DNA of 64,000 nucleotides, from sequence record KM190144. The stretch is one strand, 5' to 3'. Positions 4,054 through 62,110 of this stretch are shown here, piece after piece. This DNA comes from Escherichia phage Av-05. The first letter of the stretch is position 1. Each line of letters begins with the position of its first letter. A program made the position numbers and the translations under genes. The notes below the pieces were generated by a model. The model was not told where the DNA came from, searched no databases, and saw only the letters and a list, made by a program, of their open reading frames with translations.

Positions 4054-4551
4054 CTACTCACCTTTTAGCTTAAAACTTTTCAATGTTTTGATAAAGTCTT
4101 TCTCCGCTGGTGTGTAAGTGTGTACGAAACCTGTCTCTTCGCAGGTGTAGGTATCATTAACCTCCATTGCGTGTGGAGGGATAAATGCACCATCAGGAAC
4201 AGACTTATATTCCGGGTTGTAGATAAATTCCGGCAGCACAACAGCTACAGCAGTCATTGCCCCATTCAAGGCTTTCTTTTCTTCACGCCACCAAGCCACA
4301 GGGTAGGTTTGTAAAGACATTGCCTGATCAAGAAAATCTTCAAGCACGGACTGATAACCACCATTCAAAACAATAATGGTCTTATCTTCTTCTTTCCAGC
4401 ATTTCAGCCAATGGTGTGCAGTGATCTGCTCTGGTGTATATGCTTCACCACTATGCAAAACCATAAGCTCTGCAATGGCGTGTGCTGATTGGATACCTGC
4501 ATGGATACCGCAGATATACTGGTTAACAATACAATACATTCTTGTTTTCAT
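4054..4551 (-). CDS. PTH2-like (peptidyl-tRNA hydrolase 2 family) domain protein
   Basis: GIHAGIQSAHAIA and W..W...DKTIIVLNG resemble PTH2 core motifs (GKGKxAAQCSHAA; KVVLK); by-eye only. Confidence 0.35.
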   Translation of the reverse strand: MKTRMYCIVNQYICGIHAGIQSAHAIAELMVLHSGEAYTPEQITAHHWLKCWKEEDKTIIVLNGGYQSVLEDFLDQAMSLQTYPVAWWREEKKALNGAMTAVAVVLPEFIYNPEYKSVPDGAFIPPHAMEVNDTYTCEETGFVHTYTPAEKDFIKTLKSFKLKGE

Positions 4552-4766
4552 TTTTGTTTCTTCCTCAAAATTATCCGTTCAGGACTGAAAAATTCTTTCA
4601 AACACAGGAAGATGGCTAATGCGCCACCCAACCACCAAAAAGGTATCAACAGCAAAGCAGGTATTAAGTCCTCTCCTGTGATACAATCCTGTGTTTTATA
4701 GGTCATGGTAAGAAATACACCTGCTGCTACTATCCCAGCAACCACATACAAGATCAGTTCAATCAT
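4548..4766 (-). CDS. Small membrane protein
   Basis: 72 aa, two hydrophobic helices. Confidence 0.4.
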   Translation of the reverse strand: MIELILYVVAGIVAAGVFLTMTYKTQDCITGEDLIPALLLIPFWWLGGALAIFLCLKEFFSPERIILRKKQK

Positions 4767-5079
4767 TATCCCGTTTCTCCAGAAACGCTTTCACCGCAAG
4801 AGCCGCAGCGTAAATTGCCACAAGACAAATACAAAATGTGAAAATAATAGGTAAAACCATTACCGCAAACATCATAAACAGTGGTCCTGCAACAGTAACG
4901 AATGCTGTTCCAAGCAACAATAGAAATACCACATATTTATCTGCCGTCTCATCCACCTTCTTAAGATACACACCTAAACACACAGAAGACAACAGGAATG
5001 ACAGAATGGACAGCAATAGATACCAATTATCAATAAAGATGATAATTGGACCAGCAACATTTTCTAGCCACCACATCAT
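4759..5079 (-). CDS. Membrane protein
   Basis: 106 aa, strongly hydrophobic. Confidence 0.4.
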   Translation of the reverse strand: MMWWLENVAGPIIIFIDNWYLLLSILSFLLSSVCLGVYLKKVDETADKYVVFLLLLGTAFVTVAGPLFMMFAVMVLPIIFTFCICLVAIYAAALAVKAFLEKRDND

Positions 5080-31229: not shown

Positions 31230-31544
31230 ATGTCTATTGACCTATTTGCTATCTTAAAAGCCGTATGGGGTGTATTGACGTTTTTCTTAGTTGGTGTTCT
31301 GAAGTTAACATACTCAGACTATAAAAAGACACAGCAACGTCTTGATGAACTTGATAGGGACATCATAAGAATTAAGGCAGAGATGGTCACTAAAGAGAAA
31401 CTTGATGAGATTCTTGATAAAAAACTGAAAGCTGTCCGCGATGATGTTTCAGATTTTAGAAAAGACTTAAAAGAGGATGTGAGCAGTTTGAGAGTTGATC
31501 TTATAGACCAGCTTAAAATTCTTATAGAGAGTCAAATGAAATGA
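31230..31544 (+). CDS. Membrane-anchored coiled-coil protein
   Basis: N-terminal TM (LFAILKAVWGVLTFFLVGVL) then heptad-rich charged segment. Confidence 0.4.
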   Translation: MSIDLFAILKAVWGVLTFFLVGVLKLTYSDYKKTQQRLDELDRDIIRIKAEMVTKEKLDEILDKKLKAVRDDVSDFRKDLKEDVSSLRVDLIDQLKILIESQMK

Positions 31545-32014
31545 TAAGTTCTGCACTGTACTTTATATGCTTTGCAGTGCTACTTCTTGATAATGACAAA
31601 GGGATCCGAGCCATGTCAGTATTTGGCATGGTTCATATCGTGGCAGAGAATATACTGTACTGGTGGTTCTGTTCCCATATCTACGCATTTGACTTGTCAC
31701 TCTACCTAACCTTTTGTTGGTTCTTGGATATATCTCTGATTTTCTTTACTGCATGTGCTTTGACAGGATGGAGAAAAAAGCTAATGCTTACACTATCTCT
31801 TCCTGTTCTGTTTTGCCAAATTTTAGTTATGCAGTTCCCATTTATTTTACCAATCGCATTAGGCTTCACGATAAATTCATCATATCCAACATTTATGGAA
31901 GTTCTTTTATTATGCGCAGCATACAAAAGCGGCACAATAAAAGAATTGCTTGAGACTTCTGTTGTTGTTGGTTTCATAATTATAGCCAGAATTGTTCCTG
32001 GAGTAAATTATTGA
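31541..32014 (+). CDS. Polytopic membrane protein
   Basis: 157 aa with about four hydrophobic helices; ATGA-coupled to previous gene. Confidence 0.4.
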   Translation: MISSALYFICFAVLLLDNDKGIRAMSVFGMVHIVAENILYWWFCSHIYAFDLSLYLTFCWFLDISLIFFTACALTGWRKKLMLTLSLPVLFCQILVMQFPFILPIALGFTINSSYPTFMEVLLLCAAYKSGTIKELLETSVVVGFIIIARIVPGVNY

Positions 32015-32303: not shown

Positions 32304-34058
32304 GTGGCAGACATGACTAAATTTGAACAGGCGGTCGATCAGGTTGTAGAAGATTCTGAACGCCTTCATAAAGTTGTCAATGGGGCAGCTACTGAAACTG
32401 TAGTTACAGAGGATGGCAGTCTGATACCTACAGTCAGAAAAGCATTTCTTGACAATTTATTCTTTAAAACACCTCCACTACCGTGGGTTGCTGGACAACA
32501 GGCAACGGTATTTAATCAGTTGTATGCTTATACAGGGGAAAGAGGTGTCCAATGGTGGTATGCACCCGGTGCGACAGAGAGTTCACCTGTAACACTACCT
32601 TCTAATCCAGTCAACAATGTTAACTGGAGATTATACAACGATTCAGAATCTATGTCTCAGCTATTTGCGCCTATTGACAGCCCTATCTTTACAGGGAACC
32701 CTCAAGCACCAACACCATCAGCGGATAGTAACAGTACAACTCTGGCAACAACACAATTCGTTACCAGAGCTATTGCTACCGCTTTGGCTGGAATTGCGGG
32801 TGGAAATGGTACATTCGCAGATCTTACTGTAACAGGTTTAGCTAGTCTTAATACGCTTTCTGTTGGCGGTGTATCAACATTTAATGGGCCTGTTAATGCT
32901 GACAACCAAACAGGAAAATTCCAGAATCTTATCTTAACAAAAGATAATTCAAGCCTATCTTTTGCCTACAGTGATGATTCTAACCCGACGTTTATAAAAA
33001 CAAGGCTTGAAGCATACTCAGCACAGACCCATCAGTTACATACAGATATCATCATAAACGGTGTGCCAGTAGCAGACAATACAACAATGTCTTTCACAGG
33101 TCTTGGTAATAATACCTTCGACTATGTTTATATTACAGGCAACTCTAAAAAAGACCCATCTGAAGCTCGTCTCAAAGTTTCTGGGATGACAGAACTTGAA
33201 AACTTAAAGATCACAGGTACTGTAACAGGACTTTCTTTTTCTGTCAATGGGGAAGACATCTCGCCTAATTCTGTAACAACGGCACAAGGGGTTACTGTAG
33301 GTGGTGATTTACAAGTCAATGGTAACACCAATCTCAACAGTACAACATGTGAGAGCTTAGAAGTTACTAACAACCTTGTTGTTAATGGACAAACCAGCCT
33401 CAAGGATTTCTCCTCTACAACTGGTAATGTCACAGGGCTATTAACTTTAGGGGAGGGATTCACTGCGACTGGTGACGGGTCTGTAGGTGGTGATCTAACT
33501 GTCAACGGAACTTCAACCCTTGGTAAGATAATATCTGATGGTGATGTGACTTTAAATAGATCTTCTGGCACAACAACAGTAAACAATTTGGTTGTTAAGG
33601 GGACTGTATCTGGTATTACGTTTGATTTGACAGGACAAAACGTAAACGTAGCATCTCTTTCTGCTCAAAGCAGTGTAACGACAAATCAGTTATTTGTTAA
33701 CGGCCAGGCACAACTTTCTTCCACCAATGTAAGTTTCCTAACTTTACAATCGGAAGAGGTTGACGATCCAACAGCAACATGGACACCAAGCGGCACATCC
33801 AACATTTATAATATCACAGTGAATAAAAATCTGACAATCGGAGCATGGCCTGATCCACAGCAACCTTTCTCCGCTATGATTTATCTGACGCAGGATGCCA
33901 CAGGTGGACACAGTGTAACTCTGGATCCTAATTATGTTGTCCTTAACAGTGAAACTGTTAATACGGCAGCAAATTCAGTTACCATCCTTCAATTAACCTT
34001 TAATGGTGTTGAAGATGGGGTTGTTGACACCATTATTGTCCGTAGACCACAACCATAA
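32304..34058 (+). CDS. Tail fibre protein
   Basis: SPIFTGNPQAPTPSADSNSTTLATTQFV anchor motif; repeated NGxTxL/VxG beta-repeats. Confidence 0.6.
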   Translation: MADMTKFEQAVDQVVEDSERLHKVVNGAATETVVTEDGSLIPTVRKAFLDNLFFKTPPLPWVAGQQATVFNQLYAYTGERGVQWWYAPGATESSPVTLPSNPVNNVNWRLYNDSESMSQLFAPIDSPIFTGNPQAPTPSADSNSTTLATTQFVTRAIATALAGIAGGNGTFADLTVTGLASLNTLSVGGVSTFNGPVNADNQTGKFQNLILTKDNSSLSFAYSDDSNPTFIKTRLEAYSAQTHQLHTDIIINGVPVADNTTMSFTGLGNNTFDYVYITGNSKKDPSEARLKVSGMTELENLKITGTVTGLSFSVNGEDISPNSVTTAQGVTVGGDLQVNGNTNLNSTTCESLEVTNNLVVNGQTSLKDFSSTTGNVTGLLTLGEGFTATGDGSVGGDLTVNGTSTLGKIISDGDVTLNRSSGTTTVNNLVVKGTVSGITFDLTGQNVNVASLSAQSSVTTNQLFVNGQAQLSSTNVSFLTLQSEEVDDPTATWTPSGTSNIYNITVNKNLTIGAWPDPQQPFSAMIYLTQDATGGHSVTLDPNYVVLNSETVNTAANSVTILQLTFNGVEDGVVDTIIVRRPQP

Positions 34059-37680: not shown

Positions 37681-37872
37681 TCAAGATGATTTTTTGTCTT
37701 TTTCTTGGAGAAAAGACAGGACAAATGCTGTAACCGCTATAATCAAAGGTGGCATGACAACAATTGCCCATGGTAGGTATAGAGGGGCAAGAACTAACCA
37801 CCAAGACCAGTCTATAATCTCACACAACTTCAACGCTATGAAGAGAATGCTTAACGCAGATAAAAATCTCAT
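37681..37872 (-). CDS. Small membrane protein
   Basis: 63 aa, two hydrophobic helices. Confidence 0.4.
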   Translation of the reverse strand: MRFLSALSILFIALKLCEIIDWSWWLVLAPLYLPWAIVVMPPLIIAVTAFVLSFLQEKDKKSS

Positions 37873-56991: not shown

Positions 56992-58004
56992 CAGTCCTCC
57001 TTAGATTCTTGTAGATAAATCTCTTCAAGAATTTTACCCTGTACACCAATGACAATAATATCTGGCGCACCTGCTGGTTTTGGTGTTCCTGTCAGAACTT
57101 CATAACGACAGCAACGGCATTTTTTCTGGTTATAGTCATAAGGGACACTGACAATATCTGCCGGATCCACAGATACTTCTACAAGTACCCTTGAAGTCTT
57201 CTCAAAGGTAGTGGCATAGTCAATAGATGCAACATGCAAACCTTGGCTACATGTTCTATTGGGATTATCCTCAACCATATTACGTGGCATGGAAATAACT
57301 TGCCCTTTATAATTAGGAACTTTACCTGTATGACAATCTCGTGGGCCATCTACAGTTATCTTAATTTTCTTGTATGCCTTAATATTTCCGTTTTCAAGGA
57401 TCTCAAGATCATTATGTTTTACAAAATCATAAAGCATTTTAACAGAAGCATACGACGGGTTGTGTAGCAACTTCTGCATGAATTTGACATATCGTTCGTC
57501 AAAGCAATCATTCTCAATATCTTTAATGATTCGTTTAGCAATACTGCTTTCCTGTTTTTGCCCGTGCCAATACAAAACACCATCTATCAATACTAAATTA
57601 TCACCAAAATCAATGGTCTTTTTCTTTTCTGCTTCTTTCTCTTCTAAAATACGTTGTACAGCAGCATCTATTCCTCCTGTCCAAAGGATAACACCAACTT
57701 CTTTGAAGATGGGGCTGCTACTATTTAGAGTATATTGTTCACCATTTAACAAAGTGATATGAATATTGTCTTGGGTAACAAGGACAATTGGTTGTGCAAG
57801 AGAATGCACTGGCTTCATAATACCTACAGGATCTTCCTTGGCCTTTTTGGTTGTCGGCATTCCTTTTTTGGGTGCAACTGTCCAGCGTTTAAGAACATTT
57901 AGACCACGATCAACAACCATCATATTATTTTTCTTAGCGTATTCACGAGCTTCACGACGTGACATGAATAAAGGATTACTCACCTTTTCCTCCTTTGCTG
58001 TCAA
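56991..58004 (-). CDS. rIIB: rIIB-like protein
   Basis: Immediately downstream of rIIA-like gene; C-terminal MPRNMVEDNPNRTCSQGLHV...DPADIVSVPYDYNQKKCRCCRYEV resembles rIIB conserved C-terminus as recalled. Confidence 0.45.
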   Translation of the reverse strand: MTAKEEKVSNPLFMSRREAREYAKKNNMMVVDRGLNVLKRWTVAPKKGMPTTKKAKEDPVGIMKPVHSLAQPIVLVTQDNIHITLLNGEQYTLNSSSPIFKEVGVILWTGGIDAAVQRILEEKEAEKKKTIDFGDNLVLIDGVLYWHGQKQESSIAKRIIKDIENDCFDERYVKFMQKLLHNPSYASVKMLYDFVKHNDLEILENGNIKAYKKIKITVDGPRDCHTGKVPNYKGQVISMPRNMVEDNPNRTCSQGLHVASIDYATTFEKTSRVLVEVSVDPADIVSVPYDYNQKKCRCCRYEVLTGTPKPAGAPDIIVIGVQGKILEEIYLQESKED

Positions 58005-59976
58005 TAAATTTACGATACTCTAGCATCTCTGGAGTATTGAAATGCCTAATATTAATGTATTTTAACAATGGGTAGCGATCTTTCTTAATTTGTAGCAGCT
58101 TTTTACCAATTCTCTTCTTGGCCTCTATCATCCATAATGCTTTCTCACGGCTATCTTCGTAGCCAGGAACTGAACAATAACTGGGCATGTTTACCTTCAT
58201 CTCCCATTTTGGGAAACTGGCTACCATCACACCAAAATAGCTAAGCTCTTTAACAATGTTATGATACTCATGATCTTTCCCCACTTCTTGATATAAATGA
58301 TATTCAAGAAGGTTAGTTTTTGCAAGAGCATGAATATCCTCCTCAGTTATAACCCGTGCCTCATCTGGCAGCCAACTTGATCTGTTTAAAGGCACAATGT
58401 ATAACTTACCTGCCACACCAAGATGTTTAAGAAATGTTGGTGGTTGCTTTCTCCAAGTTGTTCTAAGATTGGAAACGTATCCTAACGGGCATAATCCTTT
58501 CACCTGCCCACCCCAGTAGACCATAGCCGCCTCAATATCTTCAAATTGAGCACGGGAAATACGGGTTACATCTACGGAGCCATCTTGGTTGATTATCCAA
58601 ACTTTATGACCCGGTTCGTAATAACCATAGCCACCATACTTTTTATCTGCTTTTTGCACTGGTCGTTTTTCAAGTTCAGATAACTTGAAAATCATCCCTT
58701 CAAAGAATTTATCACTGTATAAGGACAGAGCGTAATCAGCATCGGTTATAAACGATCTCTTACCGAACTTCTCTGCAAGCCAGTTACATTTAGAACGCAC
58801 ATACTTGCGATCATCATTGTAAACCAGTGGATGACCATTCATCAACTCTGCGTATGAATAACGCTCATCCTTACCACGGCGTGAGCCTTCGCCACCATAT
58901 GTTTCACAGTAATCTATGTAAGAACCATCAGTATAATTCTTGAATTTATTTGCAATAAAAGCAGCACCGTATTTTGTGGCGAAGTAACCGCCAATAAACT
59001 TCATATGATCAAGGACTGCTTTTAAAGTTGGCAGATCGCTTAATTCTTTTGTGATTTCTTCTCCGCGAAGTCGGATAGCTTTCGTCACAAAACTTTCAAG
59101 TTTATCACGGAATCCTCCGTCATTCTTTCCTTCTACTGTCCATTCTCGGCCTGGGTCTACATTACAATCCCCAATAGGGATAGATACCGTCATCATGGGC
59201 AGTTCTTTACGAGTCGAGAGATAATCAGAAAGATATGGTTGCTGACCCATGATAACAACACTATCCGCGTTTCTTGAAATGCTACTATACATCTCAAGAA
59301 CCCAGCCAGTCTCCTCATCCTCATAACGATACTGAACAGGATAAGTGCGATCTTCAATCTGAGTTTTAACAAAAGGATCGTTAATGATATATGGAAATTT
59401 AGCATAGCGAAGGCATTTTACAATAGCCAGCCGATAAGCTCCTGTTTCCCAAGTGTTTACGTTAAATTTAACCTCTACACCATTCTCCTCTGTTGTTTCA
59501 CAAGAGAATAAAGGCACAACCTCTGGGATTCCACTGTTTTTATGGACAGAGTATGTTGTTTTCACTCCATCTTTAACAGAAATAACTGTGAACATATCTG
59601 TTACTGCAAGAGGCGCTTTTGACCCAATACCTTTCGCGCCAATCAGATCATTACTGTTTCTTTTTGTGGACTCACCAATCATCATGAATGTACGTGTTAC
59701 CATCTCATGATCCATACCTAACCCTGTATCCTTAACAGAATACCAAGGTTCCAAGTCTGTTGGTGAGTGGATGATGATGGGTTTGTCAGAACACCCTGCC
59801 TCTGTGTGAGCATCTACAGCGTTGAAGAGAGGCTCTCGTACTGCTGCTAAAGGTTTATCTTTATAAATTCCATCGATAAGAATACTGAAAGTCTCAGGAT
59901 TCATTGCAATTGATGCTTGGTATCTTTCTACGTTCCCAGTTACCTGAACTTTGTTGTCAGATCTTTGAATAATCAT
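57976..59976 (-). CDS. rIIA: rIIA-like protein (N-terminal GHKL ATPase-like domain)
   Basis: N-box AVREPLFNAVDAH, G1 VKDTGLGM, G2 GAKGIGSKA. Confidence 0.55.
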   Translation of the reverse strand: MIIQRSDNKVQVTGNVERYQASIAMNPETFSILIDGIYKDKPLAAVREPLFNAVDAHTEAGCSDKPIIIHSPTDLEPWYSVKDTGLGMDHEMVTRTFMMIGESTKRNSNDLIGAKGIGSKAPLAVTDMFTVISVKDGVKTTYSVHKNSGIPEVVPLFSCETTEENGVEVKFNVNTWETGAYRLAIVKCLRYAKFPYIINDPFVKTQIEDRTYPVQYRYEDEETGWVLEMYSSISRNADSVVIMGQQPYLSDYLSTRKELPMMTVSIPIGDCNVDPGREWTVEGKNDGGFRDKLESFVTKAIRLRGEEITKELSDLPTLKAVLDHMKFIGGYFATKYGAAFIANKFKNYTDGSYIDYCETYGGEGSRRGKDERYSYAELMNGHPLVYNDDRKYVRSKCNWLAEKFGKRSFITDADYALSLYSDKFFEGMIFKLSELEKRPVQKADKKYGGYGYYEPGHKVWIINQDGSVDVTRISRAQFEDIEAAMVYWGGQVKGLCPLGYVSNLRTTWRKQPPTFLKHLGVAGKLYIVPLNRSSWLPDEARVITEEDIHALAKTNLLEYHLYQEVGKDHEYHNIVKELSYFGVMVASFPKWEMKVNMPSYCSVPGYEDSREKALWMIEAKKRIGKKLLQIKKDRYPLLKYINIRHFNTPEMLEYRKFIDSKGGKGE

Positions 59977-59996
59977 TCAATACCTCTATGAACTAA

Positions 59997-60515
59997 TTAT
60001 GCGTCAGGATGCTTGTAAAAAATATGATTCCCAACCTTCACTGTTCTCACCATAACTTTTGTCCAAGATGGTCTAACAGTAGTTGCATGATAGTACGTTG
60101 CTGATTTTGTGTAGTCAAGAGCTTTGTATAAACTTTTGTGGTCTTTATGCAATCTCATCAAGATTTTAGCATAAAATTTAGCCCTCAACCATCTATCCTT
60201 TTCATAAACTTTAAAGGATTGCCCACCGAATGTCCAAGAGAATTGCCCTCGCTGATAAACTACTTTCTTGATAGTACGAGGGAAATTTTTGTCATCCTTT
60301 CTGTTCAGCGTGGCAAACGCGACACCCATCATTCCATAATCGCCTTCACCTCTTCCTTCTTTATACATATTACAGGCAAGAATATTAAGCTCTGTATCAT
60401 TCTTCTTGCAAATGTGAAGAACTCTGGGCTTCTTTGCACTTTCTTTGGCTAGAACAGGAGTAATAGACAGAGAAAGTGCACAGCAAACTGCAAATAATAA
60501 AGATCTTATTTTCAA
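59997..60515 (-). CDS. SleB-like cell wall hydrolase (Hydrolase_2 family) with signal peptide
   Basis: LACNMYKEGRGEGDYGMMGVAFATLNR and YQRGQFSW motifs; probable TTG start at 60515 with GGAG RBS gives MKIRSLLFAVCCALSLSITPVLA signal peptide; track ATG 60542 lies in a hairpin. Confidence 0.5.
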   Translation of the reverse strand: MKIRSLLFAVCCALSLSITPVLAKESAKKPRVLHICKKNDTELNILACNMYKEGRGEGDYGMMGVAFATLNRKDDKNFPRTIKKVVYQRGQFSWTFGGQSFKVYEKDRWLRAKFYAKILMRLHKDHKSLYKALDYTKSATYYHATTVRPSWTKVMVRTVKVGNHIFYKHPDA

Positions 60516-60534
60516 AACTAACTCCAGACAAATA

Positions 60535-60551
60535 AGCCCCATGAAGGGGCT
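60535..60551 (-). terminator. Terminator-like hairpin after 60557-60901
   Basis: Minus strand AAGCCCC-TTCAT-GGGGCTT then ATTTGT; weak U-tract. Confidence 0.35.
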
Positions 60552-60556
60552 TCTTG

Positions 60557-60901
60557 TTAACGATGGGTAATATCTCCAGATATTGTGTTCACACTACCAT
60601 GGATCGTATTTGCGCAAACATCACCAGACACCGAAGACACATTGCCTAAAATATCTTTTTCAACATTAATATCCCCAGATGTTGAGATCACACCATTAGA
60701 GACATTTCCATAAACATTGATACCACCTGATGTTGTGCGTACCTCTTTAGCATCACCTTTGATAATAACTGTGATGTTTTTATCGTTTGTGGTGTGAACT
60801 AAATCACCATTGATATATACATTATCACCCTTAGTAGTGATAGAGATACTACCATTGGTATAGTTTCCAGAAATTGTATTGCCGTTAATTGTAATCATTG
60901 T
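60557..60901 (-). CDS. Beta-helical repeat protein (bactofilin-like repeats)
   Basis: Repeats of G(N/D)xxVxGxV/I (ITINGNTISGNYTNGSISITTKGDNVYINGD...); start taken at MITINGN. Confidence 0.35.
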   Translation of the reverse strand, partial: TMITINGNTISGNYTNGSISITTKGDNVYINGDLVHTTNDKNITVIIKGDAKEVRTTSGGINVYGNVSNGVISTSGDINVEKDILGNVSSVSGDVCANTIHGSVNTISGDITHR

Positions 60902-61070
60902 TTTGTTTCTCTTTAACAATATGTGCTTTCTGAACAGAGTATACAAATGTTTTATTGTCTTCAATAAACTCTCTGCCCTGTTCTTCATTCTCAAAAATAA
61001 TTGTGTCACACTTTGCCTTTAACATACCACGTTCTACAGTTGTGTGTGTCGTAGAAACAATTAAAGCCAT
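60885..61070 (-). CDS. Small hypothetical protein
   Basis: ORF in track, 61 aa. Confidence 0.35.
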   Translation of the reverse strand: MALIVSTTHTTVERGMLKAKCDTIIFENEEQGREFIEDNKTFVYSVQKAHIVKEKQNNDYN

Positions 61071-62110
61071 TAAGACACCTCGTTAAGTTGTTCCATGTAC
61101 CAGCTACGGGCTTTATTTGTTGTAAATTTTGCCACGTCTTTCATAGAAAGAGAATTGGCTTCTAGCACATCAGCTTCTTCTTTGTTGATATCTCGGTTAA
61201 CCCATGCGATAAATGCCCCCAGAGATGCGATGTCCAATCCAATCTCTTGCAAACCTTGTTGCAAGCGGTTCTCGGTGACTGCATACTCCACAAAATCTTT
61301 GATAGATTGCAGTTTCACAGGATCAACAAAGGCTAGGGTTTTCACTTTAGAGACAGAATGTTTTTGCCCTTTCACTTTAAACCAAAGTGCAGAAACATGT
61401 GCCAAGTGGCGATCTTTAGGTGTCCATACCACACCCTCACCAACACCAGATACACCAAAATATTTACCTACTGGGCACTCTTTTTCCACACCTTCGGTGA
61501 TCTGTGCAATTTCTGATTGCACTGTCTCTGGCATGTTAAAAGGAATATCCAGTTCCCACTTACCAAAAGTTAAAATATTATAAATGCGTTGTTCTGGTAA
61601 TCCAATGCCAAGAATATCGTCTAAAGCTAACCATTTTCGATGGTCATTCTCTTTTCCTACTGCCACACGGAAAATAGTAAAGAAAGGCATGATTTCAGAT
61701 ACCGCAACACCTTTCTGGATACCTTTTCCTGAAAATTCTCCAGCAATTTCTACTGGGAACTTAAATTCAATACCCCGATCTTCGCAGAGTTGCTTAACTT
61801 GCTCCAACAGGAGCTTATGGTCCTTTTCAACCATAAAGGCCATAAACCCATAATTGTCTTCTTCCAAAGACAAAACGCGTTCTTTGGACTGGTATACAAC
61901 CTCATCTTCAGAATTAAAGACTACACGGCAATTAGTCCCGTGAATTTTAACTGTTCCCACATAAGGAATGAGATATTGGTCTGGAGAGGCAACCTTACGC
62001 TTTATATTGCCATTCTCATCACGACCATCATAGGTTAAACGATCATGAATCGCTCGGATAACATTGCGAAATTGGCTAGTGCTTGGATACTTAGTTACTT
62101 GCATTATCAT
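61070..62110 (-). CDS. RNA ligase (T4 Rnl2-like)
   Basis: Motif I KIHGTN, motif III-like GEFSGKGIQKGV, motif IV EGVVW, motif V WFKVKG. Confidence 0.6.
   Translation of the reverse strand: MIMQVTKYPSTSQFRNVIRAIHDRLTYDGRDENGNIKRKVASPDQYLIPYVGTVKIHGTNCRVVFNSEDEVVYQSKERVLSLEEDNYGFMAFMVEKDHKLLLEQVKQLCEDRGIEFKFPVEIAGEFSGKGIQKGVAVSEIMPFFTIFRVAVGKENDHRKWLALDDILGIGLPEQRIYNILTFGKWELDIPFNMPETVQSEIAQITEGVEKECPVGKYFGVSGVGEGVVWTPKDRHLAHVSALWFKVKGQKHSVSKVKTLAFVDPVKLQSIKDFVEYAVTENRLQQGLQEIGLDIASLGAFIAWVNRDINKEEADVLEANSLSMKDVAKFTTNKARSWYMEQLNEVS

Follow-up and report, generated by a model that had tools for sequence, protein, structure and literature searches.

The stretch of DNA analysed here, 64,000 nucleotides (nt) of Escherichia phage Av-05 (record KM190144; the window in what follows), carries on its minus strand a gene for a SleB-like (Hydrolase_2) cell wall hydrolase, and it is the start site of this gene and the probable export and low dosage of its product that concern us. 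The reading frame, the Pfam and PHROG matches and the starts of orthologues are all consistent with a coding sequence (CDS) of 172 codons plus stop (59997..60515, minus strand) that begins with a TTG at 60515-60513 (minus strand). This TTG is in frame with a longer open reading frame (ORF) of 181 residues, read directly from an upstream ATG (59997..60542, minus strand). The Shine-Dalgarno (SD) sequence GGAG (60522..60525, minus strand) is followed by the 6-nt spacer TTAGTT and then by the TTG. Ahead of it, a pattern scan and folding identified the GC-rich hairpin AAGCCCC-TTCAT-GGGGCTT (60534..60552, minus strand), whose T-rich tail, ATTTGTCTGG (60526-60533, minus strand), makes the element resemble an intrinsic terminator, the one such site on the minus strand in the scanned interval 59500-61500. 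The hairpin is carried by the 3' end of the upstream gene, phrog_3163 (60557..60901, minus strand; PHROG match E=1.7e-30), and begins 5 nt beyond its stop codon at 60559-60557. The in-frame ATG (60540..60542, minus strand) lies inside the hairpin and lacks an SD sequence; its A and T close the loop as its final two bases, and with its G the 3' arm begins. The N-terminus of the TTG-initiated protein reads MKIRSLLFAVCCALSLSITPVLA/KESAKK, the slash marking the predicted cut discussed below, and that of the ATG-initiated protein reads MGLICLELVLKIRS..., an extension of nine residues (MGLICLELV).

The window region is 95% identical at the nucleotide level to Escherichia phage vB_EcoM_TH18 (TH18) and three sibling records, and TH18 is classified in the Vequintavirinae, the rV5-like myoviruses. 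SleB-like hydrolases with a signal peptide, toxicity and a possible role in lysis were described in all Vequintavirinae genera in 2020 (PMC7344957). Our survey covered IMG/VR loci and four further phage records, and it places orthologues of the window protein among these proteins at 50-64% identity and 94-100% coverage. Gene order is shared as well: the synteny RNA ligase 2 (rnl2), phrog_3163, hairpin, SleB-like gene, rIIA is kept in 13-14 loci, phrog_3163 adjoining the hydrolase in 13 and rIIA following it in 14. In the window, RNA ligase 2 lies upstream and a rIIA homologue directly downstream (57976..59976, minus strand; PHROG 612, E=3.6e-125), followed by a probable rIIB. The rIIA gene begins 20 nt past the hydrolase stop codon on the same strand, and the two are probably co-transcribed. 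The window gene thus belongs to the Vequintavirinae SleB-like orthologous group and is an ordinary member of an already described family. What is added here, at the level of sequence, is proof by comparison that the TTG is the start, a view of how widely the weak start and terminator-like arrangement occur, and the conservation of the predicted cleavage motif.

The phrog_3163 protein is repeat-rich and rich in Gly, Asn, Ser and Val, with no Pfam or NCBIfam match, and the start of its gene is ambiguous between ATG 60901 and GTG 61009, the ORF being listed to 61009.

Comparative evidence for the TTG start codon

The initial annotation had placed the start at the TTG, on the strength of the GGAG and a signal peptide, and had seen the ATG as lying within a hairpin that resembles the terminator of the upstream gene. 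These features are present, and the relatives bear the proposal out. Two protein alignments were made, of 22 homologues (A1) and of 27 sequences. In the former, all orthologues from other lineages start at the column of the window TTG, usually with MK[IL]K, and orthologues from at least nine other lineages begin at this position; the ATG and its MGLICLELV extension are confined to the window, TH18 and a 96%-identical cluster (P0001). The GenBank CDS of TH18 is 519 nt long, exactly the TTG model, and the curated record of phage Murica shows the same layout, with annotations for a terminator, a ribosome-binding site (RBS) and a GTG start.

In all orthologous loci GGAG, GGGAG or AGGAG stands 5-7 nt before the start, and what precedes it follows the same plan. 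The order is CCCCGC-TTCG-GCGGGG, ATTTTCTATTT, GGAG, 5 nt and GTG in Murica (Vequintavirus); AAGCCCCT-ATCGC-AGGGGCTT, GTTAATTT, GGGAG, 6 nt and TTG in Hena1 (Henunavirus); and AGCCCC-TTTCTT-GGGGCT, TTTTAATTT, GGAG, 6 nt and TTG in EspYZU08 (Seunavirus), while Certrevirus-type loci have hairpin stems AGGCTCAG/CTGGGCCT. The corresponding hairpins of Murica, Hena1 and EspYZU08 contain no ATG. At least six different stems occur among the loci that share the arrangement of hairpin, T tract, SD sequence and start, and the terminator-like element was seen in Vequintavirus, Henunavirus, Seunavirus, Certrevirus and the lineage of locus L013. RNAalifold predicted no pairs in 14 upstream regions because MAFFT had left the hairpins out of register, and recurrence was therefore judged from per-sequence folds and from the sequences themselves. 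Since shuffled sequences yield about one site per 2 kb of both strands, recurrence within 30 nt of the same start is not a coincidence.

If ATG 60542 were instead the true start, the product would be a 181-residue protein with a longer N-terminus. ATG is the commonest start codon, this one is kept in TH18, and automatic gene callers picked it for cluster P0001. However, it has no preceding SD sequence and is buried in a 7-bp GC-rich hairpin, the nine extra residues are unmatched in any other lineage, and the other lineages examined retain the SD-plus-start layout without any ATG in the hairpin, so that we regard initiation there as extremely improbable. We propose with high confidence that TTG 60515 is the start codon, and on the comparison of loci the ATG is best read as having arisen in the loop by chance in this one lineage.

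A preference for ATG leads gene callers to add nine spurious residues, as in the 181-residue cluster P0001, and other records err differently, with the leader cut off in Klebsiella phage NDO71 and the start set inside the RBS in PVP-SE1. Such misplaced starts hide or distort the export signal. The GenBank CDS of NDO71 starts at an internal ATG, by which the leader is lost; the PVP-SE1 protein record (L005 contig 2516-2530) begins, as MEQDL..., at a TTG overlapping the RBS, which probably gives the protein 4 residues too many. The orthologue in the EspYZU08 record (L004 2501-3031) is called a 'tail sheath protein'.

Domain, fold and predicted catalytic residue

Hydrolase_2 (PF07486) is the sole Pfam domain in the protein, with a score of 70.5 bits where 27 is the cutoff (E=2.1e-19) and a match to profile positions 1-100 of 100, in agreement with the domain assignment first made for this gene, and the PHROGs family is 938, 'endolysin'. 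A phmmer search against the PDB returned only the SleB catalytic domains 4F55/4FET (E=2.6e-7), and these were also the only Foldseek matches of the AlphaFold model (template modelling score 0.75-0.80, root mean square deviation 2.6-2.8 Å). The mean predicted local distance difference test (pLDDT) score of the model is 88, exceeding 90 in the catalytic domain (residues 33-168 in TTG numbering; 60012..60419, minus strand) and falling to 52-63 in the leader and linker (residues 1-30). E53 in the motif YKEGRGE pairs, in the alignment with SleB (4F55/4FET), with the Glu of YGESRGE, is invariant in both the 22- and the 27-sequence alignment, and is the predicted catalytic glutamate (codon GAA, 60357..60359, minus strand). 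In the structure papers of 2012 the catalytic residue of SleB is the first Glu of this motif, and this agrees with the numbering offset of 4FET. Membership in the Hydrolase_2/SleB-CwlJ catalytic-domain superfamily is solid. A catalytic glutamate is reported to be essential to SleB's activity as a lytic transglycosylase (PMC12331253), and the most likely predicted activity of the window protein is cleavage of the glycan strand as a lytic transglycosylase.

Identity with SleB proper was considered and rejected: the TIGR02869 SleB equivalog scores 47.9 bits against a cutoff of 236.5 and is matched over profile positions 82-201 only, and about 9 residues separate the leader from the catalytic domain, with no N-terminal peptidoglycan (PG)-binding domain. 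A cysteine pair (HxCKK...LACN) considered as evidence for a periplasmic location was also dropped, because the argument is confounded by phylogeny: the pair is found only in the Vequintavirinae/Stephanstirmvirinae-type clade, every member of which has a leader.

The N-terminal leader and its predicted cleavage site

The predicted Sec signal peptide spans residues 1-23 (MKIRSLLFAVCCALSLSITPVLA; 60447..60515, minus strand) and has the n-h-c layout with conserved -3 and -1 positions. The n-region MKIR (charge +2) is followed by SLLFAVCCALSLSIT and then by PVLA/K, so that 19 uncharged residues ending in P-V-L-A follow MKIR, and the predicted signal peptidase I cut falls after A23 and before K24; in the AlphaFold model residues 4-15 form a detached, low-confidence helix. 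The leader is conserved in all Vequintavirinae orthologues of the hydrolase, which upholds the Sec-type leader proposed in the initial annotation, and a signal peptide had already been predicted for the Certrevirus orthologue CB7_83 (PMC7344957). In every leader-bearing homologue A, or in rare cases G or S, occupies position -1, and V, A, L, I, T or S stands at -3; a Pro is common among positions -4 to -6, and charged residues come after the cut site. This motif is retained in more than 20 diverged homologues, for example as PVLA/KE, PVVA/AP, PAMA/TE, PVIA/EP, PALA/IE, PALA/KE, SVQA/QN, VARA/EA and ASHA/ET.

The question raised by such a segment is whether it is cleaved or is retained as the anchor of a signal-arrest-release (SAR) endolysin. 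The 19 residues of the core give a crude hydrophobicity sum of 1.05; the reference sums are 0.5-0.8 for SAR domains and 2.4-3.4 for the leaders of OmpA and MalE. By hydrophobicity alone the segment could be a SAR domain, and the conserved -3/-1 motif favours a cleaved signal. A clear A-x-A site likewise sets the cleaved leader of T4 RI apart from the SAR domains of P1 and P21 (PMC8385771). On balance we consider it probable that the leader is a cleaved Sec signal. A lipoprotein signal was rejected under the lipobox rule: the leader Cys of relatives, at position 12 after lysines, comes too early, and the Cys in the window protein follows V.

Weak start codons and the possible low dose of the hydrolase

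The gene starts with TTG in the lineage of the window and TH18, in Seunavirus, in the L008-L009/L014-L015 group, in Henunavirus, in the L013 lineage and in two genera of the Stephanstirmvirinae, Justusliebigvirus and Phapecoctavirus; Vequintavirus uses GTG, Mydovirus apparently ATC and Certrevirus ATG. The hydrolase therefore has a non-ATG start in nine of ten lineages, which share ancestry and so do not amount to independent events, compared with about 10% of the annotated genes of TH18, where ATG starts 104 of the 116 annotated CDS in the parts of the genome that were fetched. These annotated CDS served as the background, an ORF-based background having been dropped as biased toward non-ATG starts. 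The start codon has switched several times and to ATG only once. In Mydovirus the intact signal peptide has no ATG, GTG or TTG in frame ahead of it, and GGGAGG-TTAAC-ATC is the sole start with SD support. A gene for an HNH endonuclease is inserted directly upstream in this genus and overlaps the first SleB-like codons (L090, phage NDO71, 840-1060; L010 and L012, 2460-2520).

In most Vequintavirinae lineages examined the hairpin and the SD sequence are too close together to accommodate a promoter, so that transcription would occur only by read-through. Orthologue CB7_83 is reported to be toxic when expressed in E. coli (PMC7344957). Taken together, the weak start, the read-through and the toxicity of CB7_83 suggest selection for a low dose of the enzyme.

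Two Stephanstirmvirinae genomes (L088 626-654 and L089 625-653) have, in place of the hairpin, a sigma-70-like sequence, TTGCAA-17-TACAAT/TATACT together with a TG upstream of it, which lies about 30 nt ahead of the TTG and is followed by AGGAGG and the TTG itself. Promoter-like matches in these genomes are no more frequent than in shuffled sequences, and the hint of transcription by host polymerase is suggestive only.

A second wall enzyme and small membrane proteins

TH18 also encodes a protein of 234 residues (peg.172, TH18 108728-109432) with a GH19 domain and a weak PG_binding_1 match, whose gene adjoins phoH, and Hena1 gp043 is a GH19-type enzyme in the same position. The GH19 endolysin and PhoH of Hena1 had no tblastn match in the window, and the TH18 gene lies outside it. 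Given a separate GH19 enzyme in so close a relative, the SleB-like protein would be the second wall enzyme of its phage. The GH19 endolysin of a member of the subfamily (KPP-1) has been purified and is active (PMC9862379), and two lysins per genome have been noted for related phages (PMC12210895, PMC10793346, PMC11370258).

Five lineages, Certrevirus, Seunavirus and Henunavirus among them, encode a small membrane protein of 51-77 residues in the interval that separates rIIA from the SleB-like gene (L003 3047-3280; L017 3039-3269; L004 3036-3209; L008 3060-3215; L013 3040-3231; L018 3055-3252; L091 1228-1425). Their PHROG families differ (24442 or 10205, with some in none), in line with their being holin-like positional analogues, and for CB7 one of them has been suggested to be a class II holin (PMC7344957). 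No such gene occupies this position in the window, in TH18 or in Murica/Vequintavirus, and a search for homologues of the relatives' proteins in the window and the fetched parts of TH18 gave nothing better than E ~0.1.

The window encodes other small membrane proteins elsewhere. A protein with a transmembrane (TM) segment and a coiled coil (phrog_5345; 31230-31544, plus strand) and a multi-TM protein (phrog_7451; 31541-32014, plus strand) are encoded shortly before a tail-fibre gene (32304-34058), a 63-residue protein has two TM domains (phrog_1374; 37681-37872, minus strand), and two further small membrane proteins are encoded by adjacent genes (4548-4766 and 4759-5079, both minus strand). 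These are possible holin or spanin candidates in a phage group for which no lysis cassette has been recognised. The reading of 31230-31544 as a spanin gene beside a terminase was rejected, as the neighbouring ORF of 584 residues encodes a tail fibre.

Proposed role of the hydrolase and alternatives

We now put forward a hypothetical scheme for the SleB-like hydrolase. A precursor of 172 residues would be translated from TTG 60515, its 23-residue leader would direct it to the Sec system, and signal peptidase I would cut after V-L-A, setting free in the periplasm a basic, soluble enzyme of 149 residues (~17.5 kDa, isoelectric point ~10). The mature protein would consist of a single SleB/CwlJ-type catalytic domain with its catalytic glutamate intact and would act as a lytic transglycosylase. 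Its output would be held low at two levels, as transcripts must read through the hairpin and T tract, 8 nt before the RBS, and translation would then begin at a weak start codon. Made together with rIIA and rIIB, the enzyme would serve as a second wall enzyme on the periplasmic side, beside the cytoplasmic GH19 endolysin, and would either weaken the wall in advance or add to its breakdown at lysis. The scheme as a whole, in which an exported and cleaved wall hydrolase of low dose aids the GH19 endolysin, seems to us reasonably likely, if somewhat less so than the cleavage of the leader taken by itself.

Several observations weigh against this scheme. The hairpin in the window is by itself no better than chance, with 1 site found and 1.1 expected per 2 kb from shuffles and a fold z-score of -1.08 that is not beyond chance; the Mydovirus hairpin is weaker and lies further upstream, and the two Stephanstirmvirinae orthologues have no upstream hairpin at all. 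We judge the element to be real because it recurs at the same place, with different stems, in most of the related lineages examined. The common ancestry of the lineages likewise tempers the count of non-ATG starts. A soluble and active muralytic enzyme present in the periplasm from early infection would need some restraint. The hydrophobicity of the core is nearer to the SAR values, so that the segment could act as a membrane anchor, and the small membrane protein of relatives would suit a hydrolase that has a primary role in lysis and a holin or pinholin partner of its own.

The last two points lead to the view that the protein is a SAR endolysin, held inactive at the inner membrane by an uncleaved signal-anchor and released and activated when a holin or pinholin depolarises the membrane. 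This is in keeping with the uncharged stretch of 19 residues and its resemblance in crude score to the SAR domains of P1 Lyz and R21, with the Gly/Ala-rich leaders, lacking an obvious cut site, of some distant homologues (e.g., L021 and L055), and with the small membrane protein with one or two predicted TM domains encoded 3' of the gene in five related lineages. However, P-V-L-A/K obeys the -3/-1 rule and is kept across diverged leaders while documented SAR domains have no such cut site (PMC8385771), the core contains no glycine and only ~37% Gly/Ala/Ser/Thr, and neither the window nor TH18 has an adjacent small membrane protein, so that we consider a SAR endolysin unlikely. Similarly improbable, in our estimation, is an early exported wall remodeller that has no direct role in lysis and might, for instance, alter peptidoglycan jointly with rIIA and rIIB and so influence superinfection, cell shape or wall turnover. 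The gene does lie in an early/replication region directly upstream of rIIA-rIIB, the promoter-like site of the two Stephanstirmvirinae genomes hints at host polymerase, the weak start and terminator imply a low dose, a separate GH19 endolysin exists, and E. coli tolerates periplasmic lytic transglycosylases of its own. Yet the promoter-like matches are no commoner than in shuffles, the adjacent holin-like genes of relatives point to lysis, and the GH19 endolysin is itself found among early-type genes (phoH, nrd), so that position says little about timing; a literature search found no usable transcriptome timing for the Vequintavirinae.

A more speculative notion is that of an early periplasmic wall conditioner, no endolysin in the ordinary sense but a deliberately under-expressed, Sec-exported lytic transglycosylase made early with rIIA and rIIB, the dose of which would be held down in two phage subfamilies by a conserved terminator and by weak starts (TTG, GTG and possibly ATC). 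We regard this as rather doubtful. Conditioning of the host wall, ahead of lysis or as a defence against competing phages, would be the task of such enzymes, and if this were true, they would form a class distinct from holin-dependent and SAR endolysins.

The rV5-like phages have two wall-degrading enzymes and no recognised lysis cassette, and one of these enzymes, probably Sec-exported and seemingly of low dose, offers a testable handle on lysis by phages that are used therapeutically. For enzybiotic work, it is the mature enzyme from K24 onward that should be produced.

Apart from the hydrolase, the large subunit of the anaerobic ribonucleotide reductase in TH18 (L086, 40496-43143), outside the window, is split into three CDS (peg176-178) with gaps between them, which suggests an intron, an intein, insertion of a homing endonuclease or frameshifts.

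Comparison with known systems

The closest counterparts of the window protein are the SleB-like proteins of the Vequintavirinae (CB7_83, CR3_087, PVP-SE1 and Murica gp002), to which it is 50-64% identical over the full length and with which it shares synteny, signal peptide and terminator/RBS layout; Murica gp002 is labelled 'endolysin, SleB-like' and the PVP-SE1 protein 'cell wall hydrolase SleB'. The window lineage differs from them in the in-frame ATG of its hairpin, in the lack of the small membrane gene that comes next in Certrevirus, Seunavirus, Henunavirus and others, and in the two adjacent cysteines of its leader. Bacillus SleB, the lytic transglycosylase of the spore cortex (4F55, 4FET), has the same catalytic fold and the same Glu motif, whereas the window protein is only 26% identical to it, lacks the N-terminal PG-binding domain and has the clade-specific cysteine pair C36/C48. 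The host of the phage has no cortex with muramic-delta-lactam, and the rule of substrate recognition must therefore differ from that of SleB.

Hydrolase_2 proteins without a leader are found in T5 (the 'cell wall hydrolase homolog'), T5-like phages and Pakpunavirus-type Pseudomonas phages. They are 34-43% identical to the window protein from its residue 42/45 and start 'M..LLKSAL.CLALNIYHE', and the lack of a leader means that they are presumably cytoplasmic. The principal endolysin of T5 is an L-alanyl-D-glutamate peptidase (PMC7344957), so T5 too has a different main endolysin. SAR endolysins (P1 Lyz and R of phage 21) are likewise small muralytic enzymes of phages of Gram-negative hosts with a Sec-dependent, hydrophobic N-terminal segment, but their catalytic fold is different, and the window protein has a signal peptidase motif and a glycine-free core. 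A Sec-exported lysin with a cleaved leader that is restrained until lysis is found in Lys44 of the Oenococcus phage fOg44, which infects a Gram-positive host. Lys44 is the only endolysin known from its phage and differs in host envelope and catalytic domain, whereas the window lineage has a GH19 enzyme in addition to its putatively exported SleB-like hydrolase.

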